Below are positions 1 to 45,514 of a stretch of 53,583 nt of DNA, one piece after another (position 1 is the stretch's first letter; each line of letters opens with the position of its first letter). Origin of the DNA: Psammoneis japonica (taxonomy: Eukaryota); NCBI GenBank assembly GCA_008632985.1, contig QPGO01000326.1, positions 1 through 53,583 on the forward strand. The letters run 5' to 3'. The translations under genes were made by a program, and so were the position numbers. The notes beneath the pieces were generated by a model that saw only the letters and a program-made list of their open reading frames with translations, was not told the DNA's origin and did not search any database.

Positions 1-2050
1 AAGTGCAAGTCAAAGCAGCAACAGCAGCTTTAGATCTGCTCTGCTGTGAGGTGCTTTTTTGTGGGAGGAGAGTGTTGCCACACCAGCAGTGGCTGCTTTG
101 GCAACATGAGTGGTTTCAGTGGCAGCATGAGCTGCAGCAGATGCCAAGGCAGCAGTGGCAGTTTCAGCAGTGTGAGGAAAAGCAGATGTTTGTTCCCCAG
201 CCAGACTTTTTTCTGAGCTCAAGCCAACTTGCCACAAATGGCACATGCTGTTTGGCACCCATTTCTTCAGCATTGAATTCCTTTTGCAGCAGAGTTGTGA
301 GATGCTGGTGTTGGCAAAGCCTGTGGCCTCTCTGTCCATCATTTTTGGTGCACTTTTGCAGCAAAATTCTCAGCCAGTCGCAAATGAAAAAATGTTCAAA
401 AACAAAAGAACAGACCAGCCGCCAATGATGGGATTTCGACCGCAGACAGCCCACATTGGGTGTGGAGAGGTGGCCACTCTTCTTGGCCACTCACTGGAAC
501 TTTGAGCTTTTGCCTCTTGCTTGATGATCAACAACTGAGCTGAAGATCTGCGTGCGCCCATTTGGAAGTGTTTTTCCGACAAATGGACAAAAGCCCATTT
601 GGCGCCTTCTCATCCTGGGCCTGGTTGTCCCATTCTTGTACGCTGCATTTTCAGTCAATCACATCATGTCTTGAGTGAATTGTGACTCAGCAATCCCCCC
701 ATTGTGACGCATCAACACTTGACGAAAACTTCAACTTTCTGATCATTCCACCTCAGCAACACACAGCATCGCCGCGTCATGGGATCTTGGTGTGCGTGCT
801 TCGCTTTTGCTTTCACGTCGCTGGCTGGCTCTTGCTCGTTCATCGCTTGTTGCTGGTGCTGTTGTTGTTTGCATGTTTGATGTTTCGGATGGGTGAAATC
901 TGTGCATGCTACGAGAGCATGCAACATGTTTGCAGCACTGTTGATTGCCAATTCTAAATGGCTTGTTGTGGCATGAATGGTGTGCTGTGGCAGTGTGGTG
1001 AATTCACACCAACACACACACCGGTGAGAACAAGATCTGGTGCAAAACAAGAAAACCCTGCTTTTCTCTCGTGCACCACAACGTGTGAGCGACGCGCCCA
1101 CGGAGACCATTTTTCACGCGATGTTTTCTTCCCTCACAGCAGTGCTCTTGCTCTCTTGTCTTTTGTCTCTCAGGTTGACGAGCAGCGGACATTGGTGTCA
1201 GAGAAGCAGGGGGGGGCAAATTCTGGCGCTCCAATGGAAACCGGTTGACACGCGAGAGCCGAGCATGGAATCGATGTTGCAGCCATTGTTGGGTGGAAGG
1301 GCGATGATGGGAGTTCGTGGAGAGTCATCCCTTGCTTCAGAGTTTCTTCAAACAAAATGTCTTCCACTGTTGACTCAAAGTCTGGACCAAAACATTCAAA
1401 ATCCGGTGGATCAGCAACTCCAACATTGTCGGTCAAGCGTGCCGTCGCATTGGTTGGGCCAACGAGCAAGAGATTCGGGTCCAGCAAAGGCGGCGTTTGC
1501 AGACCATCATTTGGTGTGGAAGCCAAGCAATGCAAAGGATCCATGGTGGGGATGCTTTCCCACAAATGGTCTGGAACCGAGTGACTTGACAGTCCACCAC
1601 CATCTTGAGCAGCAAGAAATGCATTCTCCAATGGACCCCTCCTGAACAAATTGTTTTTGCATTCATTTGGCAGTGCCAGAAGGAAATTGGGCTTCACTTC
1701 TTTCAGAACCCGAACAGTCAGTTCATCTGGTGGATGGCAATTGGAAACATTCGGATTCCTGTGGCACGTGGCATCGCGACCCTTCTTGCAGCTCGGTCCC
1801 CTCACGCACCATGGACACATTTTTGTCCCGAAGTCAACTCAAGTTGGCACGTTCTTTCGCATTTCTTCACTCTCGTTGAACAGACAACACGCGCATCTAA
1901 ATGTTGCTTCTTCCTGTTGATGGGCATGATTCGCAAACCCATTCCAGCAAGTCGGCATGTTCTGTTGAAACATGTTTGACTTTTAGGAAGACGGCAAGAG
2001 TGCTCCTTTGTGCCCATGCCCATTTTGACAAAGAGCAGAGCCACAACACT
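1..2050. other. TpA-depleted degenerate (repeat-like) domain
   Basis: TA nearly absent and TG/CA abundant; many overlapping Cys/His-rich, Tyr-poor ORFs with no recognisable family. Edges approximate. Confidence 0.65.
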
Positions 2051-2518
2051 GAGAGCAAGAGTTGTAAAGTTGTAATGAGATGCAGCAATGTCGTGCTGAG
2101 ATGCAGCATGTCGTGCTTCTTGAAAAGGATCGACAATGGAAAAGCGAAAACAATTTTCGAAAGATTGGCGCGGCAATTTCCATTTGTCACATCTACGGAA
2201 ATTTTGCACGAAGGGGGGGCATGTCGCATGTGCCAAAATACGGCCGAAATTCGTGGGGGGGGGGGGCTCAAGTAAATGCAGCGCCCCCCCGCAAAATCGG
2301 GCCTGGTGTTCGGATTTGTTGCACCTGAAAATGTCGTCTGACCTTGGGGGTTCGCTTTGTCAGCTCGAATCTTCACGAAGAAATTTTTGTGTGCGACCAA
2401 CCATCGCATAAAAAATGACACATCTATGGCAGTGCTGACGCGTTCCAGGTCTAGGTGGGACCTCGCACTACTGAACTGTGACATCGATAGTTTTTTGAAT
2501 CACGTCGTATGTCGCGCA

Positions 2519-2532
2519 CGTAGATTTCTACG
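2519..2532. promoter_or_regulatory. Palindromic motif CGTAGA-TT-TCTACG
   Basis: Extends to CACGTAGATTTCTACGTG (2517-2534); same motif at 2759-2772 and 24728-24741. Function inferred only. Confidence 0.35.
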
Positions 2533-2758
2533 TGATTTTTTCGACATTTTGTGCCATTTTACGGTACGATCCGTCCAACAACTTTTGACATTTTTTGTTA
2601 CAGCGCGATTCTATAATGTCTTAAGAATCGCGTAGGGCAGGCGTATTTGCAAAAACGTCGAGTTGCAAGAGGCATAATTGTACCACAAACTTGGCCGTTT
2701 ATTTGATGTTGAAGATAAATATATATATTCATTAAATTCTCGTACTACGGAGCTCGTA

Positions 2759-2772
2759 CGTAGAATTCTACG
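2759..2772. promoter_or_regulatory. Perfect palindrome CGTAGAATTCTACG upstream of the LRR gene
   Basis: About 90 bp 5' of ATG 2864; recurs elsewhere in the window. Confidence 0.35.
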
Positions 2773-2863
2773 GGCCCAATGTCACACGGAGTCCCACCTA
2801 GGGCTGGAACGCGTCTGCTCGCAATGAAAAGACTACGTAGCTAGAGTTGGTTTAAGAAACAAA

Positions 2864-5854
2864 ATGATGCATTCAAAGCCCTTGCACAGCAGAACTGACG
2901 ATGACGATGATCGGAAACCTCCGGCAATCCCTGCTGGTGGACACCTGGACGGCAGGGAATCGGAGAGAGACGATCATCATGTTCGAGCAAAATTTCCTGA
3001 ATCTTTGGCCCATCGAACAAACACCAATTCTCGTGATGGATTTCCGGGCCAACTTGGTGTTTTGGGAGAAAAGAGGTGTCTCGCAGGCCACAGAAAAAAT
3101 GACAAGAATGTGATGCCGGGTGCTGTGGCCGTTGGTCCTACAGACTTTGTTCGTTCACATGTGATTTCTGTTGTGGATGAAGGCTGTCCTTCTTTGACGG
3201 TGCCAAAACACCGCTGCATTGCACACGAGAAGCAACACATGCACCAAGGCATGCAATGCTCATCCCAAGATGCTCTGCCCGAAGACAAGGCAGGAGGAGT
3301 CTGCAGGCATCACCCGAGCATGGAAGAGAGGAAAGCAGCGGAGGAGGTGCCACACAGGGAAGGAAAGCGGCGGAGGAGGTGCCACACAGGGAAGGAAGCT
3401 CGTCCTGTGGCGTGATCGACACGGCTCGGGCGACTGGGGAGGTCATCAAATCGAAAACAGACGTGACTTCATCAGTCGAGCTTGCGTCTGGACCACATCT
3501 TGTGACAAGAACTGAAACCAAGGACAGCATTCCCAAACATCTCTCTGCTTCCATTGGCGATGAAGGACTGGCTGTAGCGGCGGAGGTCATTCGTGGAGGA
3601 GAGGACCTTGAAGCCCAGGTGCAAGCTCGAGTCCACCAAGAAAGACATGAAATTGTGTCTGAAGTCCAGAAACAGATCATGGAGCAAGCCAAGCCAGCCG
3701 AGCTTGTGGTGATCGAAAAGTCTGACGACAATGCGACCTCATGCTGCAGCAGGCGGAGGAAATGGATAGCCCTGATGGGACTTCTCGCCACAATCGCGAT
3801 TGTTGTTAGTCTTGTTGTCATCCTGCTTCCATCTGATTCAGATTCCGATCCCGATCCCGATCCCGATCCAGATGCTGATCCTGATCCTGATCCGATCATA
3901 AGCAGTTGTACGTTGTGTGAAGATGGGTTTGCCCCAGAAGACCTAGATGCTCTTATTCTGGGAGAAGGTGGTGTTACCTTCACGGACTTCAACGAGACAC
4001 TGGGGCAATTCATTGCCACCAGTGAAGCCTGTTTGCAGGGACAAGCCCAGGCTTGGCGATGCTGTGGTTGCCCTACCCTACCTAATCTCCCGAGTGTTCA
4101 TGCAACTTGTGCAATATGCATGAATGGGTCTATCCCCTTGGAGACGCCCCACCTTCTTGTTGACAACAAATCATGTTCCGAATGGAATGTGTACATGGCG
4201 CATACTCCGTCAGATTCACCCAAATGCAATGCGCTAAGAGCCGACTTGTGGGACGTCATTGACCAATGCACGTGCATCGAGGATAAGACGTTTCTCCAAT
4301 ATATATCTCACGAACTCTTTCCTTTGTCTGGAGATGCGCTATTGGAGGACGGAACGCCACAGAATACTGCGTTGAATTGGCTTGCCGCCGAAGATCCCGC
4401 CAGCCTCTCTATCGAAACCACCGTAAAGGAAATTCAAGAGCGTTACGCTCTTGCTGTATTATACTATGCCACAGAAGGCACGGCGTGGGATGATGACTAC
4501 TCATTTCTTTCGAGCGAAAATGTATGTATGTGGAACGATGGAAGCAGCGGCGTTTTTTGCGCTGGCAACGTTGTTGAACGAATCAGTTTATGTAAGTCTT
4601 TGAAATGCAACGACGGCTTCGAGAAGCTTGGTGTTTCTAACAAAGATTACTGATATATGATCAAACCTTTCACAGATTCAAACAGCTTGCATGGAAAGCT
4701 CCCTCTTGAAATCAGCGTCTTATCACAGCTGAAGTCCATTGCGATATGGAGCAACGATCTCATCGGCACTATCCCTGAAGCATTTGGTGGCCTTACAAAG
4801 CTTGAGACGTTCGATGTCGATTTCAACTCAATGACTGGGTCATTACCGGCTTCGCTACTTGGAATCCAGAGTCTCCAATCGGTGTTGCTTGCCGAAAATC
4901 AGTTTTCTGGGTCATTGCCATCCGTTTTTGGAAAGTCTCTGTCCGATTTAACATTTACGGGTAACCGACTGAATGGCAAGCTACCACAATCTATCGGTGA
5001 CTTGAGCAGTCTGTGGTATCTTGACCTGTCATCTAATGACTTCTCTGGCCCTCTGCCATCCGAAATCGGAAATCTGCTGGAGTTGTATTCGCTTGATCTC
5101 GATGGTAACTCCTTTAGTGGTACGATTCCTCCGTCGGTTGGGACCCTGCCTTGGTTGAGCTATGTTTCTTTGGCCGGAAATGATTTGACAGGGGAGATTC
5201 CTCCTTTTATTTCGGAACACCTAGATGCTGTGTCGCTTGCGGAGAATCAACTGGACGGTACACTCGAGAGCTTCTTCACCTCGACGAACCCAGCTTCATT
5301 GAGGTTAATTAATTTCTCAGCGAATAAGTTGTCGGGTAGTCTTCCTGAGGCTATCGGCAGTTTCTTGCAGCTTGAAGAGTTAAACCTTGACAAAAATTTG
5401 TTTACTGGTGCCATCCCATCAACGTTGGGGAACCTTGAGAACGCTGGATTAGTTTGGCTCAACGATGCCGGGTTCACAGGTTCGATTCCAACTGAACTTG
5501 GACACCTTGGAAAGCTCAGCAGCCTTGATTTGGCACAAAACGACTTTACTGGGTCATTTCCTTCCGTGGTGGCGAATCTACAGAATCTCGGTAGGTAACC
5601 GTTCCGGACTGTGACCAACTGAGGCTGGAATTGTAGTGCTTGTTTTTCCTGCAATATCTCACGCTATTGCATTTGTGTCATTTCGCGCAGAGACGCTCTA
5701 TATTCACGGTAATGCTTTTACCAACGACTTCGAGGAAACCTTTTGCATGCGAGGCAACTTGATTGATACCCTCTCTTCTAATTGTCTCGATGATGCAGTG
5801 GATTGCTCGTGCTGCTCTTACTGTTGTGATGCTCTCGGAAACAATTGCGTGTAA
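2864..5854 (+). CDS. Leucine-rich-repeat receptor-like membrane protein (diatom type); 5' part frameshifted, possibly a pseudogene
   Basis: PGAVAV motif, TM helix (WIALMGLLATIAIVVSLVVILL), PQNTALNWLA...QERYALAVLYYAT cap, plant-type LxxLxLxxNxLxGxIP repeats, Cys-rich C-terminus. In-frame GT-AG introns 4592-4675 and 5591-5690; stop 5852-5854. Frame broken by a 32-bp duplication at 3329-3392. Confidence 0.88.
3329..3392 (+). repeat. 32-bp tandem duplication
   Basis: AGGAAAGCAGCGGAGGAGGTGCCACACAGGGA followed by AGGAAAGCGGCGGAGGAGGTGCCACACAGGGA (one CA/CG difference). Confidence 0.95.
3835..3894 (+). repeat. Hexamer repeat encoding a (Asp-Pro)n stalk
   Basis: GATCCC/GATCCT units encoding DSDSDPDPDPDPDADPDPDP right after the TM helix. 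Confidence 0.9.
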
Positions 5855-6122
5855 CAGTGCTTCAGCACGGCGAGTTCCTTTCGACTGTGAAACCTTTGAG
5901 TGTCTTCCATTTCTTGTTTGTTGTTCATGTCTACACAATCTGCTTCAACTGAATATAACCTTACATTTGCTCTCAAAGTTGCAATGCTTTCGGAAACAAT
6001 TGCGTGGAACAGTGATTCAGCACCGCGAGATACATTCGACTGTGTCGCCTTTGAGTGTCTTCCATTTTTTTGTTTTGTTCATGTCTGCACAATCTACATC
6101 AACTGAAGTTAACCTTACATTT
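5829..6122 (+). repeat. Diverged tandem duplication of the LRR gene 3' end/3'UTR (period about 155 bp)
   Basis: 5829-5968 aligns to 5984-6122 (TCGGAAACAATTGCGTG...TTTGAGTGTCTTCCATTT...AACCTTACATTT). Confidence 0.9.
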
Positions 6123-6684
6123 TTGAGACAAGGACATGCACTTTCCGACAGGGCCAGCGTCCCGTCGAGAAACAAAGGTGTTGCTTGCATAAGCTCTATT
6201 AATTCAATCTGTAAATTGACGGTGCAACTGTATTCATTCCACGCTTGGCCCTTTCATAGCACTGTGCATTACAACGAGACTGTTGAGCTAGCTAGTAGAA
6301 GCAGCTGCCGGCTGTGGATTTTACACCAACAAGTTTTTGAGGCCACGAATGAGAACAGTTTGAGCCAGTAGCACTGATGGACACTGCAATTTTTCTCTTT
6401 CTCTCCCAAACACCCAGAGAGCGGACAGCGCAAAACGAAACGCGATTGCCATATCGATTGACAATAATGAGCCAAGACCTTCTTGTAGCATTGAGCCGGA
6501 ACAGGCAAACAACACCTTACTCGAGGCCGTGTTATTTTATCGCCATCCTTTACGTGAATCTAGCAAGCAGGAATAACGTTGTTCTCTGCGTCACTGCTTC
6601 AAGCGACCTAACCCAAACCTTGTTTTGCAATGGTAAAAGGACTTGACATTTGACATAATATATTCTTGTGAAACCGAATGGATA

Positions 6685-7521
6685 CTAAAGAACCTCTGCT
6701 TCAACTACCACATCTTCCTCGGAATAGTGGCGCTGTCCCAAGCCAAACAGTGCCTCGATTTCTTGCTCGATAAAGAGCGCTTCTTCCACTCGCTTCAGTC
6801 CAGTAAGCAACTTTTTGTGGACTCCACTATTCCCATCGACCGCATGAACTTCAAACGTAATTGTATCTTGCTTCTTCTTATGCTCCACATTTCTCTTGCA
6901 GCAAATTTCATTCACTCCAATCAATGAAGTGATCTCTGGCTTGCTAAACAAAGCCAACGGACGATGCTCAATCGTAACCTCGCTTTGAGTGACGCGAATG
7001 TACGTCGTGTTTAGATGTATTTGTGCAACAAGGTACAAAAGAAAGAGTCCAACGGCATCATGAAGAAGTGCAAATATCACAGCTTCATATTCACCATTTG
7101 CAAAGGCAATACAATTCCACGTCACCATGAAGCCATTCCAAAAGATGGCAAATAGCGTCAACCCACCGTTTGCGTCCGATCTCCATTTCCGTTCCAGCAG
7201 TAGAATACCCTTTTTATTTTCCACCACCATGTTGTCAGGAATATCGACATGCCCTTGAACCTTTAGATATGCCGGTCTGTAGTTTGGAATTCCATCCACT
7301 GGTGCTTCCAAGACGGCAATGGACTGTCCTTGGGTTGACGTTGGTACACGGTTTGACATGTAAGTGGGAGGTGTTGCCACCGTTCGAGTAGCTGGCGTTT
7401 GACTGGAAACCACCAGTTGAGCCGTAGCTTCTGCTTGGGACGCAACAGCTGTAGCTATGGGCTGTTCTTCGTCAACATGAGTAGAGACGGGAACGTACTT
7501 GGTATCTCCTTTTATCGTCAT
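6685..7521 (-). CDS. Hypothetical membrane protein (2 predicted TM helices)
   Basis: Intronless ORF from ATG 7521 (MTIKGDTKY), normal composition; hydrophobic LTLFAIFWNGFMVTW and AVGLFLLYLVA segments; C-terminal EEALFIEQEIE. Confidence 0.8.
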   Translation of the reverse strand: MTIKGDTKYVPVSTHVDEEQPIATAVASQAEATAQLVVSSQTPATRTVATPPTYMSNRVPTSTQGQSIAVLEAPVDGIPNYRPAYLKVQGHVDIPDNMVVENKKGILLLERKWRSDANGGLTLFAIFWNGFMVTWNCIAFANGEYEAVIFALLHDAVGLFLLYLVAQIHLNTTYIRVTQSEVTIEHRPLALFSKPEITSLIGVNEICCKRNVEHKKKQDTITFEVHAVDGNSGVHKKLLTGLKRVEEALFIEQEIEALFGLGQRHYSEEDVVVEAEVL

Positions 7522-7699
7522 GGTGGACTGCAAAGTGTACCCCCAACGTCAACAGGAAATAACCGCCGTGACTCGACGCTTGACGACGACGACTCGGTTA
7601 GGAATGGCGCTACGAGAGCCAATCAGAATTGAGCATTTGGGATTTCTACTTAGGGGAGACCCTCGGAAAGTCGAGGACTTTCCGACTAATTAATTAACA

Positions 7700-10020
7700 C
7701 TTTTTTGGAAAATCACGCAATCACTTAGGGACGAGGAGGTTGAGACAACTCTCCAAAAGCAGACACAAGAATCAGAATGATGCGGAGACCGACTGTCATC
7801 TTCCTTTCGCGCCACGGAAAATCACAACAACACAGACTTCTCACGCGATGAGAAAAATTCTCTCACAAAAAAAACCCACGAGAGAGAAAAGTACAATCTC
7901 TACTGGTGCTTCGATGATGACGGACGTAACGGAAGAATCTGCTCCAACAAAAGAGGCCGAAGAGCGGCAGCTGCATCCTTTCTTTAGAAACATGGGCATT
8001 CAATCCCAGAAACGCAAAGGCTCCGTCAAAGCGAGCAAAAGCCAAGCGCACACACGCCAGAAGTGGACGCATCAGAGCGATTTTAGTGGGCGCAAGGTGG
8101 CAAGAGTAGACGACGGAATGAAGAAATGCAAGAGATGTGAGAGAGGTCCCACATGTCATCATGGCCATGATCCCACACGCAAATTTTCAAAAAGGCACTC
8201 GCAAGTGAACGTCACCAAAGCTGCCATGGATGCAGAGCGACGCGATGAAGAGCTGCACGAAATGAACAACACGATTCCAGCTGCCCCAGTTGAGGGAGTT
8301 TCGACCACACAAGACCATTTTGGAACACAGAGACCTGAAGCTCGCGTCACATTGCCTCCTCCAGGTGTTTCCAATGTTTGCAAGCCGGTGAATTTGGGGG
8401 TGGCTGGTGCTGCAGGCCCCGTGGAGTACACGGATGATGCTTGCAAGGCGGCCGCCATTACAAAATTTTCGGTTGAGACTTTGAAACAAGAGATTCGAGC
8501 GAGAGTAAAACAATGCGAGAACTCCGAGGAGAGGACGAAGTGCCCGGCTGCAGCAAGTGCTCTCATCAGCCATCTGTTGGACTCTGTCAAGCCCAGATTC
8601 GAGCAAGGCAGCAACAAGCATCCTGCCCAAAGAGACAGCAGTCAAGAAGGTAGATGTTGTCATTGCTGGGCATGTTTTGTGCATGAGTTTTTGATTCACT
8701 GTTTTATTTCAACACGCTGCCGATTCCCACACTCCAACAGCATCAACAACCTTTGTTTTTAGCCGGGTTCGCAAGAGTTGCAGCAGTCGCAACAACAGCA
8801 GTGGTCACAAGAGTTGCAGCAGTGGTTGTAAGAGCTGAAGCAGCCGTCGTTCTTGCGTGCCCTGTGGAACACGCTGTCAATGACTGAAGTCAGAAACAAT
8901 GCCACAGAGATGAGCTCTGGGACAAAAGCAACGTTTGCAGTGCAACAGAACCACGACCAGCTGCTCCAACACCGTAGACTCCCATGCTCCTGCACAACTG
9001 ATCCAGTGCCACCTGCTCCCTGTGCCACCCAGCTGCAAAACTTTGACAATCCAAACCACCTTTGAGGGCAGGTGAACCCCATCGCAACGGAGATTCGGGT
9101 CTGCGGCGGTTGAAGGCACTCCCGTCCTTGGAAGCACCAGTCAACGCCTTGCCGGGGAGCAACCCCTTGGCTCTCGTCGGCCATCTCAACATTCAAAGGT
9201 GGGGCCACATGAACATCATTGCAGAAAAAAATCACCGAGGCGCTGCTGCAGTCAGCAACCTCGGCAGTGGCCCGTGTCATTCAAAGACGAGGGCAACCTC
9301 GTCTGCCGCTCATGCGTGGACTTTTCCAGCCAAAGTGGTAGATTGCAGGTAAAAAAACGACACAAACCGCACCCACAATCAATGCATGGCCATCAATCTC
9401 TTCAAGCAGCGTGTCAATGGCACCTGAGGCAGCGCCGCAAGCAGCGATGCTGCAAAAATCCTGAAACGCCACCCCGATGACTGGCAAACCCTCATTGACG
9501 ACTGGAGAAGAGTCGACTGGAACCACAACGAAAGCACACGAGACACCATTAATGCTCAATGCTTAAAGGAGGGCTCTTCAATCTGTCAAGAACGAACAGA
9601 AATTGCAACGCAAGAGTGAGAGACGAGTTCTAAAAATGGCAAAAGCACCAAGTGCCAACGCATTTCTTGTCCATTTTTCACGTTTTTCACACCTCTCTTT
9701 TCGTGTGTTCGTTTGTCAGAGAGAGTTTTAATGCGTGCTTTGTTGTCACGGCAGCATCACAAGTGACAGCGACAATTTCAACTGCCGGCTCTTGCAGCTG
9801 TCATGGTCGATTTTTTGTTTGGTGTCGGAGGGAAACTCCTGAATTGCGCAGATTTCTATGTAAAATTCACACTGGGGATACTTCAACACTACAATGTCTC
9901 ATCGGTGTCACCACGCCAAATTACTTCAACATGCGAGCACCCGGAGATCTGACACATCGGGTGGTGAAAAGGGAGAAAGAAGTGAGGATCGCTCTTCAAA
10001 CCACTTCCGCAATTTAGATC
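7700..10020. other. Moderately TpA-depleted degenerate region (decayed TE or gene)
   Basis: Few TA, CpG largely kept; Tyr-poor ORF 7740-8762 and short tandem repeats near 8770-8850; family not recognised. Confidence 0.5.
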
Positions 10021-10334
10021 AAGCTCGCTGCCCTCGCAACCCCTTCCTCTCTCCTTCCTTTCTCTCCTCTTCCTCATTCTTTCTCCTCTCCCCTCCCCCC
10101 CTCTCGTGGAGTCACTAACCCCCCAAAATCCTCGGTAGGCTCTGGTCACGACCTACCTCCAACCCGACCGCGCCGTGAACATTGAATCGTGCGAAAGAAG
10201 CGCACGCGCGACCTTCGAAACGTGACTGAACCTCCAAAGAATGACGTCATCGACCAGTCAGCGATGGATGCGTGCATGTTGAATGTGCATGGATCATCTT
10301 GAATCTGCGTTTTCCTTTATTGTGACAATGGACA

Positions 10335-11279
10335 ATGGCGACAAAGCCTGCGTCAACGCAAAAGCACCATCATGGCCAAACGGATCATGATCCGAGCATT
10401 AACGTCTCGGCTTTCAATGGTCGGTCAGAGAAGCTTACGACAACGAAAGGTAGCGGATCTGAGATTCTTGCTCAAGTCGAGCAGGGAAAGCCAAGTGCGA
10501 CACATGCGAGAAAGCAATCTAAGAGAAACCCACCCAAGGACGATCTGTTGCGGTCGTTTGCCAATTTGGATCACAATCGTGGGGTTCGTACAGGATTTCC
10601 CGAAGCTGTCTTTGCCGAGGGCAAGACGGCAAAACAAGTCGCGGCAATTCTGGACGACATGGCACATCATGTCAACATCTCCATCCGTGACGACAAGACG
10701 AACGAGACAAGAACCAACATGATTGTAGCCACAAGAGTTGATCCAGTTCAATGGGAAGAAATAAGAAAAATACCGCTTAAAAACGGAAAAGCCACCTATC
10801 ATGAAGTGTCACGCATTGTATCCATGAAGGCGTCCGCTCTTGAATCTTTCGAAAATAACGCCGAGAAGGACGACTCGCAGGACCAACCGACCATCGTTGT
10901 TGCATGCGCAGGAACCACGGATATGCCGGTTGCCGAAGAAGCAGCCGTCACATTGGAATTGGCCGGTTGTAATGTTGACAGAGTGTACGATGTCGGCGTT
11001 GCCGGCCTTCACCGAATCCTTGGGGCTCTTCCAAGGTTACAAGATCCATCTGTGAAATGCGTCATTGTATGTGCCGGCATGGATGGTGCCCTTCCCAGCG
11101 TCGTGGGTGGTCTTGTGAGTGTGCCTGTCATTGCTGCTCCCACTTCGATTGGGTACGGTGCAGCCTTTGGAGGAGTGAGCGCTTTGCTAACCATGTTGAA
11201 TAGCTGTGCTCCTGGCGTTGGGGTTGTCAACATTGATAATGGCTTTGGTGCAGCTGCGCTGGCGTTCAAGATGATTTGA
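10335..11279 (+). CDS. larB: Nickel-pincer cofactor biosynthesis protein LarB (PurE/AIR-carboxylase-like; CpmA family)
   Basis: Motifs LDHNRGVRTGFPEAVFAEGKT, AGTTDMPVAEEA, DVGVAGLHR, AGMDGALPSVVGGL, PTSIGYGA, MLNSCAPGVGVVNIDNGFGAA; intact and intronless. Confidence 0.93.
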   Translation: MATKPASTQKHHHGQTDHDPSINVSAFNGRSEKLTTTKGSGSEILAQVEQGKPSATHARKQSKRNPPKDDLLRSFANLDHNRGVRTGFPEAVFAEGKTAKQVAAILDDMAHHVNISIRDDKTNETRTNMIVATRVDPVQWEEIRKIPLKNGKATYHEVSRIVSMKASALESFENNAEKDDSQDQPTIVVACAGTTDMPVAEEAAVTLELAGCNVDRVYDVGVAGLHRILGALPRLQDPSVKCVIVCAGMDGALPSVVGGLVSVPVIAAPTSIGYGAAFGGVSALLTMLNSCAPGVGVVNIDNGFGAAALAFKMI

Positions 11280-11578
11280 TTCTCATACTTTTAAGTTGCA
11301 CGGTAGATTGGATGGTATGGAAAACGGCGAATGGATCCTTGCTTTGCCATAAGGGACGACAGACGCCCACTCCCAACACTTTAATCAGTATATAGAATAC
11401 ATAGAAAATGGGCGTCGCATCATTTACGGTTAATTTCCTTCTCTGTTCGAGAAATATTAAAACTCAGGATCAGGCCTCTTTCGCCACGTGACACGACGAT
11501 GTTTACCGTCACTCTCTGTTTTTAGTCTCTAATGTTTCAGGTCGCTACGCCGTTGTCTCGGCCCGCTTTCGAACACTT

Positions 11579-13010
11579 TTAGAGCTCGTCTTGCTCCCAG
11601 TTCTCGTCTCCATATCTTGGCCCTTGCCACCGTGTGTGAATAAATGGGTTTTCAAACCTTCCCCAATTCTCAAATTCCCACCACTGTTTCTCGGGAGAAA
11701 CGCCCAGACGGTGCCACTACATAGCAGAAGTTTGAGAAAGTAAATTAGCGTGCATAATACGCCCCACCGGACAAAAAGACATGATTCCTGCACGTACCTG
11801 CGTAAATGTGCTTTTGCTTCCCGAATTACCGGACAGGCAGCATGAAGAGCCATATTGGGATTGGGCTGGTATTCAAAGTACAACAAATCTCCCGGATTGG
11901 GTTGAAAGCGCATGGGATTATTCCCATACGGAAACACAGTGCCACCACCCTCCTCTGCGGTTTCACAGTAAATCAAAGTCGTAGCCACTCGGTCTCCCAA
12001 CTTGTATCCACTCCCGTCCGTGTGGGGTTTGTACTCGTAGCCCTTGATGTAGTGTAAAAAGTTAATGGGTTCTTGTCCTTCGTACGGAACGCGCTTTTGC
12101 AAAAGCTCACTCGCCACGTCAAACGTAGCGGCAGCCGTGCGACTGTAAATGTCGTCGGTATCCCAGTCGATAAACTGCGTAGCGAAGAAAAACAAAACCA
12201 CAACATATGAGTAACAACTACAATAGTGAGACTGACTGGTCTCTTCTTTCTCTGACGCACCACGTTATCCGTAAGGGTCTCGCGACTTTCACTCGTTTCA
12301 GTCTTTCCAACGCCACCGACCGTTGCTATTGACAGATTCTCCTTGACGTCCTTCATGAGATCAGCGCAGCCTTCTTGAGAAACAAAGCCACGAATGGTGG
12401 CAACTTTTGGTTCCTCTCGCAAAATTTCGATAGTGTGTCCCAATTTGCTCTGGATTTCTCGGAGCGCTTCCGCCGGAGCCTGGTGATTGCACAGACTCCA
12501 ATAGGTCTGTGTATCCCAGAGCCGATGAAATGCCCCTTTCACAAATCCTATGGGCATTCCCCCAAAGGTATGCTCCGACAAACAATTTTCAAAGGAAGAA
12601 TCATCTTTCAGTTCCTGACTGACGCAACGGTGAGCAGCGGCAGAAAGCTCTACCTGCAAATCGTTGGTATCGTAAAGAACAATGCCACCATTTTCGTTGC
12701 TATCGTCCAGCACGAGCACTGCATATCGCTGAGTTCCTGGTGGAAGTGTTTCCGAGTACGGCTCATTATCATCATCATGACTCTTCCGTAGTTTCACCGC
12801 AGCTTCTTCAAAGGAGGCTTTTCTGCCAATCGAAAACGTCAAGGTATCACCCGCAGGAATAGTTGCCTCTTGCGGTTCCATCAGTTCCACCGAATGAGAG
12901 AGTCTATTCGATACAACTAGCTCGGCGGCGAGAGAAGCTTGGAAACAAGCGAACAACAACAGCGCCGCCGTCATTCTTTGCGACGGCGGTCTCGTCATGG
13001 TTGATGGCAT
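11579..13010 (-). CDS. ER-resident prolyl 4-hydroxylase-like 2OG-Fe(II) oxygenase
   Basis: Signal peptide (LLLFACFQASLA); YEYKPHTD, RVATTLIY, GGGTVFP, LHAACPV motifs; introns 12175-12260 and 11717-11797; last exon ends WEQDEL-stop. One G is missing near 11821 (restoring it gives GSKSTFTQ|W). Confidence 0.82.
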
Positions 13011-16000
13011 TTTTTGCACCTCTGCCAGGAAGCGCTCCACTCCCCAGCGTTCATTAGATAGAAGGTCTTCGTAAATGGATACTTTAATATGATGTAGAAT
13101 CTTTATCTGGAACGCTGGGGAGTGAAAAGAGCGTGGGGCGCGATCGCTTGAAAACAAAAGACACCGGAGCTCGAAGCTCGTGGCTGGCCGTCACCTCTGA
13201 ACTGCCGTCAAAACGGGTGGATGGAGGATTCCATTCACCATCGACCATTTGGGTGCCCCTGGCTACTTCGCTCACCGCCTCCTGTTCGGCGCCGACCAAG
13301 AACATCCGATCCCAGCCCCACCAGCTCCTCCCCCCTGGACCACCGAAACCTCCTTCCCCAACACCCCGCCGCCCACGCTGCACATGTCTGTGCCCAATCA
13401 TCGCCATCGGCCATCATCCCCGCCGCCACCGCCACTTGGCAAAACATCACAGCTGAATGATTTGGCTTGGCCTGTCATGCTTCCACTCCATCACAGTGGG
13501 GTCTTCAGAGCCCAAGCCTTGCCATCACCAAATCAATCGCTGGCCAACTGACCGCCTGCTCCACCAAACTGCAATCCGCCATCCCAACTCTCTAACCCCA
13601 GCTCGAAATCCATCGCCTTTCCCACCTGTGTGACTCAGTTCCACCCTTGATCTGCTTCTGCCCATCCCCCGCACCACTGGGTGATGTTGCACGTGAACTC
13701 CTCACGCATGCGTGCCACCAGGCAGCTCCCCTGACCATCAAAAAAGAGCGCCTGCACAAGTCTGCTGCGAAAGCCCAAAGTTTTTCCACTTGTGGACAGC
13801 AGGGGTTTCCTTTGTTTGGCATGTTCCAATGTGGTTTGGGGGGGGGGGTTCACCTGAGGTGGGTCAATTGCAGCAGCGCAGGCTGTGGGAGTGCTCAAAA
13901 AGGACCGCGATTTCCCCCATTGTTGTCCAGGAAGCAACTCATCTGGCCTGCTCCAAGATGTTGCCATCACCCTTTCAACCCCAGAGTGTTGCCATCTCTG
14001 GCAAAGTCAGGTCTGAGATTGTTCTTGTTGCCTTCATCTGCTTTGGCGGTGCCACACAATGTGCCACAGAGCAGAAAATGTGCAAATGGCAACCAGGAGC
14101 AGATTGCACATTCTGATGGCAGAGTGGTCGTGGCACAAGCCCACATGCTTTTGATGTGAAAATCACCTGGTTGTTCTTGCAAATGAAATTTCTCCATGTT
14201 TCACAAATCAACTCAGTTTTGCTGGGCTCTTTCATCCATTCTCTTGCTGCCAGACAGCGCAAGCACCTCCTCATGCAATCTCGGACGGCGACACCAAGAA
14301 TGCCCAGGAGCGGCCTCTCCTCCAACGCACATCTTGGAGACCTGGCAAATCTGAAATTGTCTTTTGTTTTTCTGGAGCAAACCAAGTCAACATTCACAGT
14401 GAGGGGGTGCTCTGCATTGTGCTCACAATGTGGTTTTTCTCCTTCATCCACATTGCATGAGGTGTGCAAATGTTTGCCAGCACACTGATCAAAAGCATGG
14501 GGCTTCTTTTCTTTGCACACCACCACCACAAATTCTTTTGTGAGGGCCACACTTTAAATGCTGAGTGCACTTCATTGCATGTTGGCAACGGTGTTTGTGC
14601 ATGGAACATGAGTGCTCTTCATGGATCCACCAGCTCCGCCCCCCCCCAAGGATTTGATGTTTCAAGTGTGGGTCATCTTTGCTGCTGGAACACTTTTGTG
14701 TGTGCACTTGCTTGTTTTCTGTTGTGTGTGTCTGGTCATTTCCCAGCAATGCCAGCAAAAAGAAGGTGGCCATGCTGCAAAGAAAAGGACATTTGTTGAG
14801 AGAACAGTTGGCTGTGGCACAATGGAGTGTGGCAGAGGATGACAAAAGCGAAGCTTGGAGCATGTTAAAATGCACTGGCCATCAATGTGAAGCAACACTC
14901 ATTGCCCCTCCCAGTGCACACAATGGCAAGAGAACCAACAGTTTCTTTTTGCAAGCACCAACCATCATTGTTGCCTGTGGGTTGTCCTTGGCACACTCAC
15001 CAGAGCTGCTCTCCACTGGAGCAATTTCACAAAAAGACAATTGCAATGACAACTGCACATGCAATCATCAAGAAACCATGCTTTTGAGGACAATGGTGAG
15101 AAGAAGTGGCTGCAGAATTGATGGCACAAGGACACCACCAGAGAGCTGTGTTTGCTTTCCATCTTCTGGTCTGCAAAAGCAACCATCATGGTGGGGGATG
15201 TGGAGCCATTTGCAATTTCTTTGCAGCTGCAACTGCACATGCTGCCACCTGGTGGAGCACCCTCAAGGCACTGCAAATGAAAAGATTTGCAGGCATCAGG
15301 GCATCTGTCTGGGGAATTGACAATGACGACATGAGTGGGAATGTTGTTGCAGGAGGGAGGGCAGTCAACTTGAGTCTTGCAGAGAGCAACTGGAAAAGGG
15401 CTTGGAAGCCCAGCTGGAACCACACGAGCATTGTTGGATGGATGTTCCGTGGCAGTCTTTAGATGACAAGTGGCAGCTGGCTGCCACAAAGGGCAGTGTT
15501 GCCTTGTGGGGCACAAAGAAGAACAACCCAACCTTCTGGCAGATGGTTTCACAAGTTGCTTCAAAGCAGTCAATTGGGCCAGCTTCTGGGAACAAAAAGA
15601 CACAGCTGGCGGCCACTTTCAGCAAGCTTGGGCATTTGAGCAGGAGTGGGCGAAGGAGCTGTCATCAGAGAAAGGACACAGAGTGATGCTGGAGCACTTG
15701 AGCATGGTCCTGGGACACACTTTCTCACCAGCAAGTTCACATTTCACACCACTGCCCAAGCACCTGTTCTTGTTGGTGTCCCTCCCTGACAATTTGCTCA
15801 CCTCACAACAAGAGCCAGAGGCCAACACAATGTTGCCACAGTGACCCTCCAGGCTGCAGATGTGATGGCAGAGAGCTTCATCTTCATGGGCATGCAAGAT
15901 GGCGACAGGCACTCTGCAGCTGCACACAGGCATCACACATGCCCACCAGCTGTTGCGTCACTCTGTGTGGCACTCTGCTGACAGCCCCCATTTTCACATG

Positions 16001-16072
16001 TTTGACACAAATGACAACGGCAAATGAGCCATGAGAACAGCTGCTGCTCTTGCTGCTCCAACACACAGCTGC

Positions 16073-16074
<2 letters not shown>

Positions 16075-16123
<49 letters not shown>

Positions 16124-16143
16124 AAGAGAGAGAGAGAGAGAGA
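16075..16143. repeat. (GA)n microsatellite
   Basis: Nearly pure GA run. Confidence 0.97.
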
Positions 16144-17565
16144 TGTCATTTGTTCAAGAGAGAGAAGCAAAACAACATCAAACTCCTCATCTGCTTTAGT
16201 CAGCAAGCCAGATCTCCTTGAGTGATTCATTGAGATGATGTCACCACAGAGCTCCACTCATTCTGCTGAGGGGTCTGCAATGTGTGAGATGGCCGAGTCA
16301 TGCAAGAAGCAAACAATGATTGCATTTCTTCCATGGCCCTGCTTGTCTCACTGTTTCTGAAAGCAGCAAAAATCACAAACCAGCAACCTCAAAACATGGC
16401 CTTCAAGGCCTTCAATTTCTTCCTCACAACTGTTCTTGTGACTTCCAGCACTTTTTGCTTCTGTCCCAGCACACACTCTCTGCACTTCACCACTCAATGA
16501 CAGTTGATCATGTGGGACAATGACAGTTGCAAGAGCACCAAGAGAAGGACATGGTTGAAATCTGACAATGAGAACACAAGGGGTGGATGCAAAAAGAACA
16601 GTCCGTGTCCACTCTGGGGCCAGGGTTGGGACTCAACTGGGCTCTGGAACAAAACCTCAAATGGAAAACTTGGGGACAAATGTGCTGTTCCAGGCCTCAG
16701 CTGGAATGTTTTGTTGCTGCAACTTTTGCACAAATTGGGTTGTGGCAAGTCATCACAAATCAATCTGTTGTTGCAGGTTTTTGTCTTCTTGCACTCCAAA
16801 CTCAAGCACAGGCTTTGACTTGGAACAACCAAAGAGACCGTGGCATTGTTCTTGGCTCAGCCACTGCACCCAACAAGTCCTTGACCGGCTCTGCCCACTG
16901 ATGATGTTTGTTGCTCCATCATTTGCCTGGAAGTGCTTGTGCATGATTGTGCACCACTGCCTCATTTTTGCTGAGCTTGTGAGCAGCAAACTTGCTCTCC
17001 CCATCTTGGCTCTGAAAACAGGCCCATGAAAAAGTGTGCCCATCAAAAGCTGATGATGGCAGTTGTCATGTTGCTTCAATGCCTTTTGATGATGGCAGCC
17101 TCTGAATGCAGCACAACATGTTGGCCTGTGTTGCTCACATGTGACTTCTCTTGTCACTGTGTGATGTTTGTGGACAGCTTCTTGTGTGGGGCACTTTGTG
17201 ATGCTCTCACCTCCTCTTGCCTGCAAAATGCAAAACAACACATGCTTTTCTTGATTTGTTGGAACCAGGACTGCTGAATGTGTGAGATGATGAGGCTCAC
17301 TTGCGCCGACCAGTTTTTCCACCACAAACAATGCAGCAGGTCAAAAATCCCTCAGATGCAAAGAAGAGAGCATTTTTTGAGAGAAGTTCCTTTCAACGGA
17401 TGTTTGTGACGCGGTGAACGCAACAGCAGACATGCACACCGTACAGAGAACCGTGCGAGCTGGCGGGCGGCCTTTTTTCGTCAAGCCTTGTTGATGCGAT
17501 GCCGCCTGCATGCCGTGCTCCAGTGTGTTGTTGCTTGTCTCGTCATTTTGGAATTTTGCAACACC

Positions 17566-18344
17566 ATGGCTGACAACGAGAACAATGATGGCACGGCTGC
17601 TCCCAATGAAGTCGCCGCCGCCGCCGCCACAAACACAACCGCATGGTCATCTCCCATGTGCATGCGTGTTTGTGTCATTCCAAGCAAAGAAATGTTCCCT
17701 TGTGATTTTTTTGAGTGCAGCACAGTCGATCACATGAAATTCGGCAGCAAAGCACTGCTTCACAACGGCGCTCTTGTCCACTTTGACACAACAAAATGCC
17801 CGCCTGCTCCCCCTGGAATCAAGGGTTGTTCCAAATGTGACACAACCTGTCATCGCCTCGTTTAAGACATTTGCTCATTGGCGGCCCAGGGTGGGTTTGA
17901 GATCGTGGCAAATGGCGGTGGCCGCATCTTGTGCTCATTCTACAAGATCCACCGTCCCGACAGTGCACGCCAAGTGTCGCACCGCAGGCCTCGGAGTCGC
18001 AAAAGCACAAGAGCCCGGGGCTGGAAGTGCATGTGTGGTTGGGGCCTTGCAGTTCGTTGCAACTCCTTTGGGTGCTTCTTCAAGTGTGACACCAGTCAAG
18101 GCATCCATTGCAACCATCTCAAGCGTCCTCTACAAGAAATTGTCGCAATGAAAACACGTGTCCCTGCTGTCGGTCCCCAAAACATTCGCCATGTGTTGGG
18201 CCCCAAGTTGGACACACTGCACTCGCTTTGTGAATCGCAAGACATTGAGCGGGTGGAAATGCCGGACTTGAAAACCCTTGTCAAGTCTGTGGACGATCTC
18301 ATTTCAGAAATCCAGGGCAAACTGGATGATCTTGAGCCGTCCTT

Positions 18345-18375
<31 letters not shown>

Positions 18376-18501
18376 CAACAACACAACAACATCCACAAAA
18401 TGGCAGCAGCAACAGTCAACCTCAACCACAGTGGTGCCCATTCGCACACGGATGACATCCGCGTGTTTGCATGCACAGCAGGTCAGAGCTGTCCAAGGTG
18501 A
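17566..18501 (+). pseudogene. FAR1/MULE-like (WRKY-GCM1 zinc-finger) domain pseudogene with polyQ
   Basis: ORFs 17488-17865 and 17878-18501 share a frame, split by TAA 17863-17865; GGFEIV...ILC...RKSTR...KCMCGW...HCNH resembles the FAR1 DNA-binding domain; CAG/CAA run near 18346-18382. Confidence 0.45.
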
Positions 18502-20888
18502 ACAGCATGCAGCACTCTCTCATTGAACAGAGCTGCAATCCACACAACATGAACAAAGCGTCATTTCCACTCGCAGCACAATGCTGCACCTCTGTGCAGG
18601 CCTGCTGCATCATGAATCTGTGACTCGAGCCTCTCTGCTGCACTCTGGCAAGAGCTCTGTAAAGTCGCATGCATTGTGCACACTCACAGTTGCAATTGGC
18701 ATTTGCGCTTCATCGTCCTCGGAGGCTTCGGTGAACTCACGTGAGAAATGTGGATTCCGACTGGCAGGGAATTCCAGACCTCAGGTCACCAATTGCAGAC
18801 CTCCCAAGCCGGGAGTGGTCACCAATGATCCCGACAACAGCAAGCAGCACCAAGAATCGCAAGCAATGTGCGCCATTGTTGGTTCACCTGAGCAGTTAGT
18901 TTCCATTGCTGTTGACATCACCTTTGTGCTTTCCATCACTTCACCCACATCCATGTGTCTGCAAACTGCTTGGCCCTCTTTTTACAAATTCCAAAGTGCT
19001 TGCTGAGCACTGCATCTTCCCCAGTTGTGAGCGGCCCAATTGTCTGCACTGGGCTGTTGCAAGAGATTCTTGATTCCCCACTTTGTCAAGAGCTTCTTTG
19101 TTCTCATGGCTTCCAACAATCCTGGGCCAAGTGTGTGCATTGTTCCAAACTGCTTTGGTGCTGGCCAGTGTTTTGTTGGTGGAGCAGCACAGGCAGTTGT
19201 GGAAGCCTTGATTGGCACACCCATGAGTTTTGTCACAAAGGTCTTGTGTCTGACTCAGCAAACATGATGACATGCAAGTGAGATTCCAGCACAGCCTGCA
19301 CTTTCCTTTGCGGAAGAGCTGGGAGAGATTGTGGGCTTGTTTTCTTCCAAAATTGCAGCTGCGCTCTCCCCACAGGCATTTGTGATCCATTTGCAACTCT
19401 TGGGTGGCTGACCAGCCCCCTCCTTTGTTGCCTCTGCACTCTCCTGTTGCCAGCAATGATGCAAAGAGAAATTGTCATTGCAAGCAAACACCAAAACTTG
19501 CACCAAAACAGTGAAGAACTCCACTGGGATCCTTCTTCTTGTTTGTTCTTGGGACACTTGCACAAAGGGACTTGTTTGTGAGCATGAGATGACTCACATT
19601 GATGCAGAGATGATGTTGTGAGCATGGCTCATTTGGCTGTCAAAACACTTTTGTGCACACATGCTCCTGCAATGATGGCTTGCATCTTTCCTGCCAGCAA
19701 CACACTCAAAAGAAAAGCAACGGCTTTCTGGGTCAGGCAGTGGAGGGGGAGAGCAAAACATGGCACACAGCTGCATCGTGGTTTTGAGCAAAGGAGGGAA
19801 GATGCTTGGGGACAATGAATCCTAGATCCCAAATGCCTGGTGTCTGAAAGTGGAAGGCCGGACTCCATTTCAGTGGGTGACTGAATTTTTTGATGGAAAG
19901 AAAGCTGGATTGCGGCGATCGCATCAAATCTGTCATTTGCAAAAATCTTGCACCCCTCTCTCCACAGGGCAGGGCACCAGTGCAAACATCAGTGCATTCA
20001 TGTGATGACAGGTGCTTCTCCTCAAAATCAGGTGTGGACCACAGTTTGTGTCATGATTGCAGCGCCGTTGCTGGGCTGGGTGTCATGGCACAACAAGGTG
20101 CGGGGAATGATGAGAGTGGCCACAATGATGAGCCCCCCCGGCATGTCGCACTTGCTGTCCAGAATGTGCAGTTCTTGTTGCATTTGGTTTGGAAGGAGGA
20201 AGGATGTGGGTCACATGACACCAATGTCAGTTGATCCAAAACATCTCTCCCAGGCCCTCCAATCTGCACAGAATTTGTTGATGGGTTGCCGCGGTGGCAT
20301 GCTGGGTCAACTCCATTTTTTTTGTCAGCCCTTCTCTGGTGGAGAATGCTGCCACCTGGGAAAGAACCTGTTGCTGGCATTGCTCCACAGGGAGCACAGT
20401 CCAGAGAGAGAGTTTTAGGCCGATCTGCAAACGACATTTTAAAGACATTGCACAGCGGCACCCCCAGCCCAGCGGCGCGCGAGGACTGTTGTGGCGGTCT
20501 CAGCTTCTCTGTCTCTCTGTGTGTTGCAAGAGAAAAATTGCGCCCTCTGCTGGTGGTGGTCAGAGAAGAAAAGGAGCACCGTTGACCTCTCTGCTGGGGC
20601 CCAGCTGCTCTAGAGAGTGAGAGCTGCTCTACTCTACTAGCAGCTGGCTGCTCTAGAGCAGTAGAGAGTGCCAGCAGATGCGTGCGGATGCGCCCAACTA
20701 AAAAATTGGAGGCGGATTCAGCCGTGCCATCTTACGCCCCTACGTCACGATCCACGATTGAATCTCCCCAAGAATATTTTGCAAAAAAAGGAAAAAAGTG
20801 GGTTCGCACAATCTATTTTGGCTTGACGCCTCCTTTTCGCTGTTCTCGACATACAAGTATTGCTTCTTCTCAACAGCATGGCAAGATA

Positions 20889-32323: not shown

Positions 32324-33530
32324 TTGACAATGCGCAGACGACTGCACATCGGTGCTGCACAAGGGTCACGGTGCTCCCGTCTCAACGCACTGCGAACAAT
32401 CATGACAGCCATCGACGACATCTTTCGACCACTCAATGCCAATGACACGGCACAACGTCAAGAACCCATCTCAGTGAAAAAATTGCGCAAAGGAGATGCA
32501 ACCTGGTCGACACAAAAGGAAGTGCTGGGGTGGCTGATCGACACCCACTCCATGACACTGCGCCTCACTGACTGTCGCCTTGCAAGACTCTGCACTGCTC
32601 TCCACCAGGACTCCCCCCACCAACATAATTGAGCTGCCACTTCTGACTGCCACCGCCTGCTTGGTGAGCTCTGCTCACTGTCAACAGCAATCCCCAGATC
32701 ACGTGGTCTGTTTTCCAAACTCCAGAAACTGCTGCGCCAAACACCACACCAGACTCCTGCACATGTCTCACACTGACCTCCATGCAATTATGGACAACTT
32801 TAGAGACCTCTGCACCACCCTTGAACTCCATCCAGCACACCTCCAAGAGCTGGTCCCGCTTGAACCCACCGGTGCATGGATGCCACGATGCTGCCGGTCA
32901 GGGTGCAGGAGGAGTGCCACTGCCCACAAATGCGCTGCCACCGTGCCACGGGCAACTAAACTCAAGTTTGGCCCTTCTGCACGGGCCCGCCGTCAAACCT
33001 CCTCCTGCCCAACAGTGTGGCAAATGCCCTTCCCAAAGGACATGACATCTGACCTTGCAACCTGCGACAACCCCACCGGAACTACAACCAACACCAATCT
33101 CAAGCTCGCAGGTGGCGTTGTGCAAACACATGCAGCCTCCAACTGTTTCGACATGCAAGAACGCACTCACCTCCAATGCACTGACAGTCCAGGGACCATG
33201 TTCTGGCAACAAAAAGGATCCTTGACTGCTGCCAAAGTTCGTGCTTCTCCACTTCATTGCCAAGCCCACCACCAACATTTTCATCAGCAACTCACGCTAC
33301 ATGACTGCCTGCCGGGCCCCCTCAACACTGCCGGCAACAATGCCTCACGCTTGCAATCCCTTGCTGACACCAAAATTTTGCGCCACTTTCACTCTTGTTG
33401 TCCCCAGAACAAACCTTGGTGCTTGTGGACCCCGCCACCCGCACTGTGTTCCTTCGTGACCTCCGTGCTGCACAAGAAGCAGTGCCCATGCAGTTGCCTC
33501 TTCACGAGCCTCCGCCGCCAACACCACACT
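32324..33530 (+). pseudogene. RT C-terminus/RNase H remnant of the YR retroelement
   Basis: EPISVKKLRKGDATWSTQKEVLGWLIDT; GCHDAAGQGAG, TNTNLKLAG, HDCLPGPLNTAGNNASR; frameshifted. Confidence 0.8.
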
Positions 33531-34520: not shown

Positions 34521-34613
34521 CTTGCCCCCAACATGCCTCAAGCACCACAGCTCACCAGCCGGTCCCACCTCTCCCACCCAAAATTCACTTGTGCCTCCTT
34601 TGGAGGAGCTGGA

Positions 34614-35051: not shown

Positions 35052-35109
35052 TGGATCCCCCATGCTCCACATTGAGTTTGACGATGGTGGTGCCTGTGAC
35101 GTCAATCTA

Positions 35110-45471: not shown

Positions 45472-45514
45472 AGATACTTCAAGTCGTTTTGTGGTTGAAA
45501 CATTGCCAAGAAGG

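Follow-up and report, generated by a model that had tools for sequence, protein, structure and literature searches.

A TA-free tract in the 5' part of a leucine-rich-repeat receptor-like gene, a probable footprint of TpA hypermutation

Mutation of genomic DNA directed specifically at the dinucleotide TpA has been reported once before, in a 2026 preprint on the rhizarian alga Bigelowiella natans, whose mutation-accumulation lines change TpA to TpG or CpA about 1000-fold above background (Mettrop et al., bioRxiv 10.64898/2026.01.13.699255). Here we analyse a 53,583-nucleotide stretch of Psammoneis japonica DNA (contig QPGO01000326.1, hereafter the window) in which a tract of about 0.9 kb, lying in the 5' part of a predicted leucine-rich-repeat (LRR) receptor-like gene, has lost nearly all of its TA and probably records the same kind of mutation.

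According to the preprint, A to G or T to C made up 230 of the 231 mutations that arose in two integrated virus regions of B. natans, and every one of these GC-biased changes was at TpA. The targets are integrated giant-virus and virophage DNA, and the authors propose that an ADAT2-like adenine deaminase makes the changes. The genome holds 124 clusters that are poor in TpA and rich in CpA and TpG; TpA-poor coding sequences are enriched in reverse-transcriptase and DDE Pfam domains, and some are host-like (bioRxiv 10.64898/2026.01.13.699255). In that alga the long-term trace is weak and the rule of targeting is not known.

The present DNA resembles that system in that changes to TpG or CpA, apparently at TpA alone, have affected both strands within bounded domains, leaving as a long-term trace TpA depletion with CpA and TpG enrichment. 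The LRR tract shows such a bounded depletion with a matching gain of both products. It differs in its target, being host coding sequence rather than foreign or mobile DNA, although other TA-free domains of the window hold a Copia element and repeats. B. natans is a rhizarian, whereas this DNA by its content appears to be that of a stramenopile, probably a diatom; a Rho of 0.45 in the virus region there contrasts with a near-complete loss here (observed/expected 0.05); and the viruses there are replaced here by long terminal repeat (LTR) retrotransposons and unnamed repeats, with no recognisable viruses. The main text of the preprint does not describe a sub-genic tract in a host gene with edges located to tens of bases, and mentions neither diatoms nor flank context. 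Full-text searching for TpA hypermutation found that preprint as the only description, and nothing for diatoms.

Repeat-induced point mutation (RIP) of ascomycetes is a context-dependent transition hypermutation of repeats that is confined to the repeated segment and fast compared with ordinary substitution, and host genes may suffer from it when they are duplicated or lie next to repeats. RIP converts C to T at CpA, creating TpA. The logic of the present pattern is similar, with dinucleotide-context transitions of repeated DNA, but the direction is opposite, since TpA is destroyed and CpA/TpG are made (observed/expected 0.05 for TA and 1.7 for CA/TG). CpG decay by 5-methylcytosine deamination, as seen in methylated transposons, also ends in TG/CA and co-occurs in the older TA-free domains (6-11 CG/kb); the LRR tract, however, shows no CpG depletion, its 47.1 CG/kb being close to the 48.1 CG/kb of the adjoining downstream DNA (3767-7800). 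ADAR hyper-editing and the AID/APOBEC enzymes likewise cause transitions by deamination and favour certain adjoining bases (ADAR prefers A after U), but their substrates are RNA or C of single-stranded DNA, and they work somatically or on viral intermediates, whereas the changes here are heritable, lie in genomic DNA, affect A in TpA and are strand-symmetric. In diatoms, DNMT4 has been linked to fungal RID (PMC9998398).

The TA-free tract of the LRR gene

The tract, the gene and the element upstream of it are laid out as follows.

2437-2815, unstranded: high-copy element of 379 nt with terminal inverted repeats of ~25-28 nt and a target duplication TGCT (2433-2436 and 2816-2819)
2854-3766, plus strand: TA-free tract, 913 nt with 2 TA, spanning all of the LRR gene that codes for the N-terminal cytoplasmic domain
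2864-4591, plus strand: exon 1, ATG at 2864, reading frame broken by the duplication at 3329-3397
3329-3397, plus strand: tandem duplication, period 32 nt, 2.2 copies, 97% matches
3763-3828, plus strand: predicted membrane helix, WIALMGLLATIAIVVSLVVILL, read from the translation without a prediction tool
4592-4675, plus strand: intron 1, GT..AG, 84 nt, 5 TA
4676-5590, plus strand: exon 2, LRR repeats (Pfam LRR_1 1.1e-32, LRR_8 4.9e-22), TA normal (3/11/17 by codon phase)
5591-5690, plus strand: intron 2, GT..AG, 100 nt, 5 TA
5691-5854, plus strand: exon 3, Cys-rich C-terminus, stop codon 5852-5854

The original prediction had counted 2 TA in 2864-3760 against 8 in 4381-4500 of the same gene, with CpG retained, and our recount agrees. 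These 897 nt hold TA at 3139 and 3575 (observed/expected 0.04) and 43 CG (0.68). The loss is real, and its bounds are better placed at 2854-3766, between flanking TA at 2853 and 3767. The tract thus delimited begins 10 bp 5' of the ATG and ends at the opening codons of the membrane helix; TA next occurs in the second codon of WIALMGLLATIAIVVSLVVILL.

As controls we took 700 windows of 897 nt, at 25-nt steps, inside the TA-normal domains of the 53,583-nt window. They contain 31.1 TA on average (sd 7.0, minimum 16) and 127 TG+CA (sd 10.2, maximum 152), compared with 2 and 159 in 2864-3760. TA-free gaps within the tract measure 286, 436 and 192 nt; in normal domains none exceeds 235 nt. The TA depletion of the tract is well outside chance. 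Per kb the tract has 2.2 TA, 47.1 CG, 86.5 TG and 89.8 CA (79 TG and 82 CA in all). Its TA deficit of ~26-29 (2 against 27.6-31 expected) is about equal to its TG+CA excess of +30 to +32, which is evenly divided, CA +15.6 and TG +14.2 by codon-phase expectation. Since TG and CA gained equally, both DNA strands were mutated. There is a mild CG deficit over the 281 codons of the tract (41 observed, 53 expected), and both surviving TA belong to the CTAC class.

Composition does not account for these numbers. When the tract's own Tyr-free residues were back-translated with the codon usage of the window in 2000 trials, the mean was 25.4 TA (sd 4.1, minimum 14), and the TG+CA count averaged 121.5 with a maximum of 143, compared with 2 and 151 observed. 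By codon phase, 6.2/9.1/12.3 TA were expected and 0/1/1 observed, so that a single TA, where 12.3 are expected, remains in the codon-junction phase, on which residues have little influence. The absence of Tyr up to about 4190, noted in the original prediction, is borne out: neither frame has a Tyr codon across the tract, and in the frame continuing into the LRR part the first is at 4192. The tract has no Tyr codon where 6.2 are expected and 18 His codons where 7.2 are expected; the N-terminal domain of the relatives introduced below holds 3-5 Tyr in P0009, P0010 and P0013 (9 in P0003, 3 in P0006).

As read from its sequence, the gene is of the diatom LRR receptor-like type, with an N-terminal cytoplasmic domain and a single membrane pass. 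The LRR receptor-like family is large in diatoms. Four relatives came up when 3400-3828 was used in a full HMMER scan: P0009, P0010, P0012 and P0013 (E 1.4e-5 to 9e-5). Their N-terminal domain (AAEV..ED.EAQV.., basic residues, Trp, then one membrane helix) recurs in the tract protein, the helix itself aligning with their hydrophobic segment. P0012 (149 aa) and P0013 (214 aa) consist of the N-terminal domain and membrane helix only. The N-terminus after ATG 2864, DDDDDRKPPAIPA, matches that of P0010, the motif 'DDDD-x-KPPAIPA' being common to the first 25 residues; for the first half of the tract (2864-3343) taken alone no protein homologue was found. Family homology extends also over 4207-4545, and the conserved pre-LRR motif PQ..AL.WL ... 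RYALAVLYYAT.G..W is shared with diatom proteins (best named match Attheya septentrionalis, 45% over 76 residues) and aligns with P0001, P0006, P0009 and P0010. Because the N-terminal domain is common to the relatives, the tract can be taken as real ancestral coding sequence: 2864-3762 is the ancestral cytoplasmic-domain coding region, neither a transposon relic nor a chance open frame.

The 32-nt duplication moves the frame of ATG 2864 (183 codons) into the frame open over 3181-4650, and deleting one 32-nt unit in silico yields an open frame of 925 codons. Either the N-terminus of the gene is now broken, or a later ATG such as that at 3256 starts translation. Three frames are open across the tract, including a 319-codon antisense frame (3141-4097). 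TA-free DNA, in which TGA is the only stop, produces long spurious open frames, a warning for annotation. None of the listed runs is recorded as RNA. Run X2 has spliced joints (11716-11798 and 12174-12261), as a transcript assembly would; one of its contigs lies on exon 2 (4704-4969, depth 3.4), and it has no cover on 2669-4669, an absence that is no evidence either way.

Both edges of the tract are sharp and located to within tens of bases. The original prediction had called the upstream stretch 2400-2860 TA-rich and spared. It does contain 35 TA, and the 5' edge is real, since the 48 nt between the small transposon and the start codon (2816-2863) keep 4 TA; 29 of the 35, however, fall within the TA-rich 379-nt transposon at 2437-2815, which may be younger than the tract's mutation. 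Further upstream, 1898-2436 holds 9 TA. On the downstream side silent TA sites are intact, with 12/13 and 11/17 TA in codon phases 2-3 and 3|1 of the next two coding stretches, and introns 1 and 2 keep 5 TA each. As silent-site and intronic TA are kept outside the tract, its edges mark the limits of a mutational process rather than of purifying selection.

The small transposon, 48 nt upstream of the LRR start codon, has normal or high TA despite its very high copy number: the 667-nt depth bins of run X1 that contain it reach ~53,000-73,000, against ~55 for single-copy DNA, and precisely at 2815 the match of 21 contigs comes loose. Within 1-20000, this element alone is covered by the short contigs of run X3, which resemble small RNA. 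Upstream of it, intergenic positions 2215-2290 carry G runs of 8 and 13 and a C run of 7, which could be real or could mark weak assembly.

A second copy of the tract was not found within the window by plain blastn, purine/pyrimidine-collapsed blastn or tblastn, which returned only the internal 32-nt repeat and two-letter-alphabet noise. The depth of run X1 over 3336-4002 is ~94, against 78 in adjacent DNA. None of the 40 best-supported among 489 differences between contigs and window lies within 2864-3766, which is uninformative on alleles. Scans of metagenomes with the extracellular part of the gene, and with an alignment of four family N-terminal domains, found no paralogue or related locus.

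TA-free domains and the Copia element

A 300-nt dinucleotide map was used to delimit the domains of the window. Sharply bounded, repeat-rich TA-free domains total ~28 kb, and one of them contains a complete retrotransposon.

1-1897, unstranded: upstream TA-free repeat domain, 4 TA in 1897 nt
13201-20400, unstranded: TA-free domain, parts also CpG-free
32401-44700, unstranded: TA-free domain containing the Copia element
36048-43247, minus strand: complete Copia LTR retrotransposon with LTRs at 36048-36243 and 43052-43247 (196 nt) and an intact 5-nt target duplication GACCT
48301-53583, unstranded: TA-free and CpG-poor domain

From normal to TA-free domains the observed/expected ratio falls from 0.54 to 0.05 for TA and from 0.98 to 0.43 for CG, and rises from 1.10 to 1.73 for CA and from 1.17 to 1.70 for TG; the remaining 12 dinucleotides differ by 0.13 or less. 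The sum of TA, CG, TG and CA is ~221-269 per kb in all segments (238 in both main TA-normal domains), as expected from transitions inside pyrimidine-purine steps. TA loss is near-complete in every TA-free domain, and CG varies among them from 6 to 47 CG/kb. Positions 14301-17400, 18901-20400 and 48301-53583 lack TA and have almost no CpG either (6-11 CG/kb), while TG and CA each reach 103-128 per kb; the TA-free sub-domains next to them keep 32-47 CG/kb. This points to two processes, TA loss and CpG loss, with different kinetics or different targets.

The Copia element, which has Pfam RVT_2, gag_pre-integrs and SH3_retrovirus domains, serves as an internal reference. Its LTRs differ at 10 nt, all in five pyrimidine-purine loci, and at none of the 186 other positions; three loci read TG/CA, one CG/TG and one CGTG/CACA, and ancestral TA and CG are indistinguishable there. 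Neither LTR contains TA. As the LTRs were identical at integration and now differ, the change took place in genomic DNA, after integration and independently in each LTR, and it is much faster than ordinary substitution. The element has 4 TA per kb and still 42 CG per kb. In the LRR tract (47 CG/kb) and in this young Copia alike, more than 88% of TA is lost; CG being kept while TA is lost, TA loss can be told apart from CpG decay and precedes it.

The TA that survive in depleted domains are biased in their flanks. Strand-wise, the 5' neighbour is A in 10 of 170 cases, against 397 of 1508 in normal DNA; ATA/TAT contexts are almost all lost, and TTAA and CTAA survive best. This suggests that the mutator has an extended sequence preference.

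Contigs of run X1 on 1-2000 and 8000-9500 differ from the window by exchanges of TG and CA doublets, which in the upstream domain (1-1897) lie at 173/174, 541/542, 569/570, 814/815 and 1326/1327. The region 7700-10320 is a mosaic, with 14 TA per kb overall and TA-free patches at 8107-8427, 8975-9339 and 9350-9550. Run X1 depth there is ~900-1800, so the region is repeated ~20-30 times. Pfam matches none of its open frames, and the region may represent a repeat family of younger age that is only partly mutated.

Proposed mechanism and rival explanations

Taken as a whole, the evidence makes it probable that the tract is the footprint of a DNA-level hypermutation of TpA to TpG/CpA, as in the transposon domains, which here hit a module of a host gene. 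The mutator would convert TpA to TpG or CpA, that is, A to G on either strand, and the same process would have nearly saturated the window's transposon-derived domains and struck ~0.9 kb of the LRR gene. By analogy with the B. natans proposal, the chemistry would be adenine deamination on DNA, with thymine modification as a possible alternative. The tract may have been targeted since its N-terminal module was, or is, duplicated or otherwise repeat-marked. For the gene, the outcome would be collateral damage and not a programmed diversification, given that the part hit is cytoplasmic, the conversion is saturated, the frame is shifted and a transposon lies 48 nt upstream of the start codon. The claim that a mutator footprint lies in an LRR gene independently of CpG decay, put forward in the original prediction, is upheld by the matched TG/CA gain, by CG densities of 47 against 48 CG/kb and by the ancestral coding nature of the sequence.

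A rare TA-specific DNA mutator can, on these grounds, also hit part of a host gene. Compared with the single earlier report, the same chemistry would appear in an apparently different supergroup lineage, near-complete and sharp-edged, with one tract corresponding to a single protein module. Since this tract is sub-genic and flanked by intact silent TA, the mutator would be aimed at a defined DNA segment and not at a chromosome region or at general 'foreignness', and the targeting question becomes testable as one of homology, small RNA or chromatin. The recoding and probable inactivation of a receptor-family gene would be a cost of such a defence. More speculatively, and we would not expect it to hold in full, this stramenopile, probably a diatom, may defend its genome much as RIP does but with the opposite chemistry, by means of a guided mutator making A to G changes at TpA on both strands, saturating before one ordinary substitution accumulates, with edges within tens of bases, that recognises duplicated modules as short as ~0.9 kb and so recodes (Tyr to His/Cys) or kills receptor-family members sharing the N-terminal module. 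If true, this would, together with Bigelowiella, make TpA hypermutation a widespread genome-immunity system of SAR eukaryotes (stramenopiles, alveolates and rhizarians).

Several observations weigh against a mutator acting at this locus. TA-bearing DNA, with the 9 TA of 1898-2436 and the 4 of 2816-2863, parts the tract from the upstream TA-free domain. The idea of a duplicated module has no direct support, given that the window contains no second copy and that the X1 depth is ~94 against 78. The His excess (18 against 7.2) is larger than the expected Tyr loss (6.2), and part of it is accordingly ordinary composition. Synonymous and non-synonymous outcomes, compared by codon phase, gave no clear pattern.

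Two other origins were considered and rejected. Simple spreading from the upstream TA-free repeat into the tract is ruled out by the intervening TA-bearing DNA, and insertion of a foreign TA-free element is ruled out because both tract ends are colinear with the family N-terminal domain.

Import of the patch by gene conversion or recombination with a hypermutated paralogue or pseudogene carrying the same N-terminal module, without the mutator ever acting at this locus, would fit the sharp edges and the length of ~0.9 kb, which is typical of conversion, as well as the coincidence with a protein module present also in the short relatives P0012 and P0013 and the membership in a family that is large in diatoms. 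With no donor copy in the window and no extra depth that clearly marks a second copy, we regard it as unlikely. Composition was named in the original prediction as the rival source of TA-poverty: a disordered, acidic, His-rich cytoplasmic tail with local codon preferences might avoid TA, and this tail indeed lacks Tyr and has low-complexity poly-Asp and Asp-Pro repeats that are naturally TA-poor. Composition alone, however, predicts ~25 TA and not 2, with a minimum of 14 in 2000 trials, and it leaves the nearly empty codon-junction phase, the TG+CA count above all control windows and the 3-5 Tyr of the relatives' domain to be explained, which makes it extremely improbable. It is also very unlikely that the 5' part is non-coding, the true gene start being at ATG 3775, close to the membrane helix, and the tract being a transposon relic. 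TGA being the only stop of TA-free DNA, long open frames arise by chance, and both the three overlapping frames and the lack of a homologue for the first half alone would suit such a relic; yet four family members match 3400-3828 with their N-terminal domain, the 'DDDD-x-KPPAIPA' motif after ATG 2864 recurs in P0010, and a Pfam scan of the region found no transposon domain.

AID targets receptor genes within their first 1-2 kb. A mutator aimed at the 5' kilobase of receptor genes, loosely like antigen-receptor somatic hypermutation, would likewise explain a tract that starts at the start of a receptor-like gene and ends after ~0.9 kb, and Tyr to His/Cys recoding would alter the protein. The original prediction had entertained a route to diversifying receptor-like genes, which we do not retain: the tract falls in the cytoplasmic tail and not on the LRR surface, the conversion is saturated rather than sparse, a 32-nt duplication shifts the frame, a high-copy transposon sits 48 nt upstream, and an identical signature runs over kilobases of dead transposons. 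Such programmed diversification thus has very little probability. Least credible of all is RNA editing followed by retro-copying, or an artefact of sequencing or assembly. ADAR-type editing does prefer A after U (cited in bioRxiv 10.64898/2026.01.13.699255), but an edited retrocopy is at odds with the equal TG and CA gains, which require both strands to have been hit, and with the downstream introns, which are retained; the Copia LTR pair shows post-integration change. Against an artefact, paralogous copies differ by TG and CA doublets, and contigs of run X1 reproduce TA-free stretches (13641-16065 with 16 other letters, 16152-17386 with 3), although X1 may be the source sample and is then not independent.

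Other features of the window

By its content the window is probably not B. natans DNA: its genes have long exons without interruption, the best named match of the LRR family is a diatom, a LarB-like frame matches Phytophthora best, the nearest Atlas clusters are Bacillariophyta, though weakly so (0.81), and no search returned a near-identical protein. On the minus strand, 11548-13190 is a gene with a 2OG-Fe(II) oxygenase domain (PF13640). A spliced contig of run X2 bears out its two introns, 11717-11797 and 12175-12260, both bounded by GT..AG on that strand, and at its 5' end the gene adjoins the TA-free domain starting at ~13200. An open reading frame at 10326-11276 has an AIR-carboxylase/LarB-like domain, with its best named relatives in Phytophthora (53% identity), followed by many bacterial LarB-LarC fusions. 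At 45165-47514 lie three tandem units of ~1040 nt each, Ala/Lys-rich coding and 63-77% identical over their cores. Their TA is normal, so tandem repeats of such age and divergence escape the mutator.

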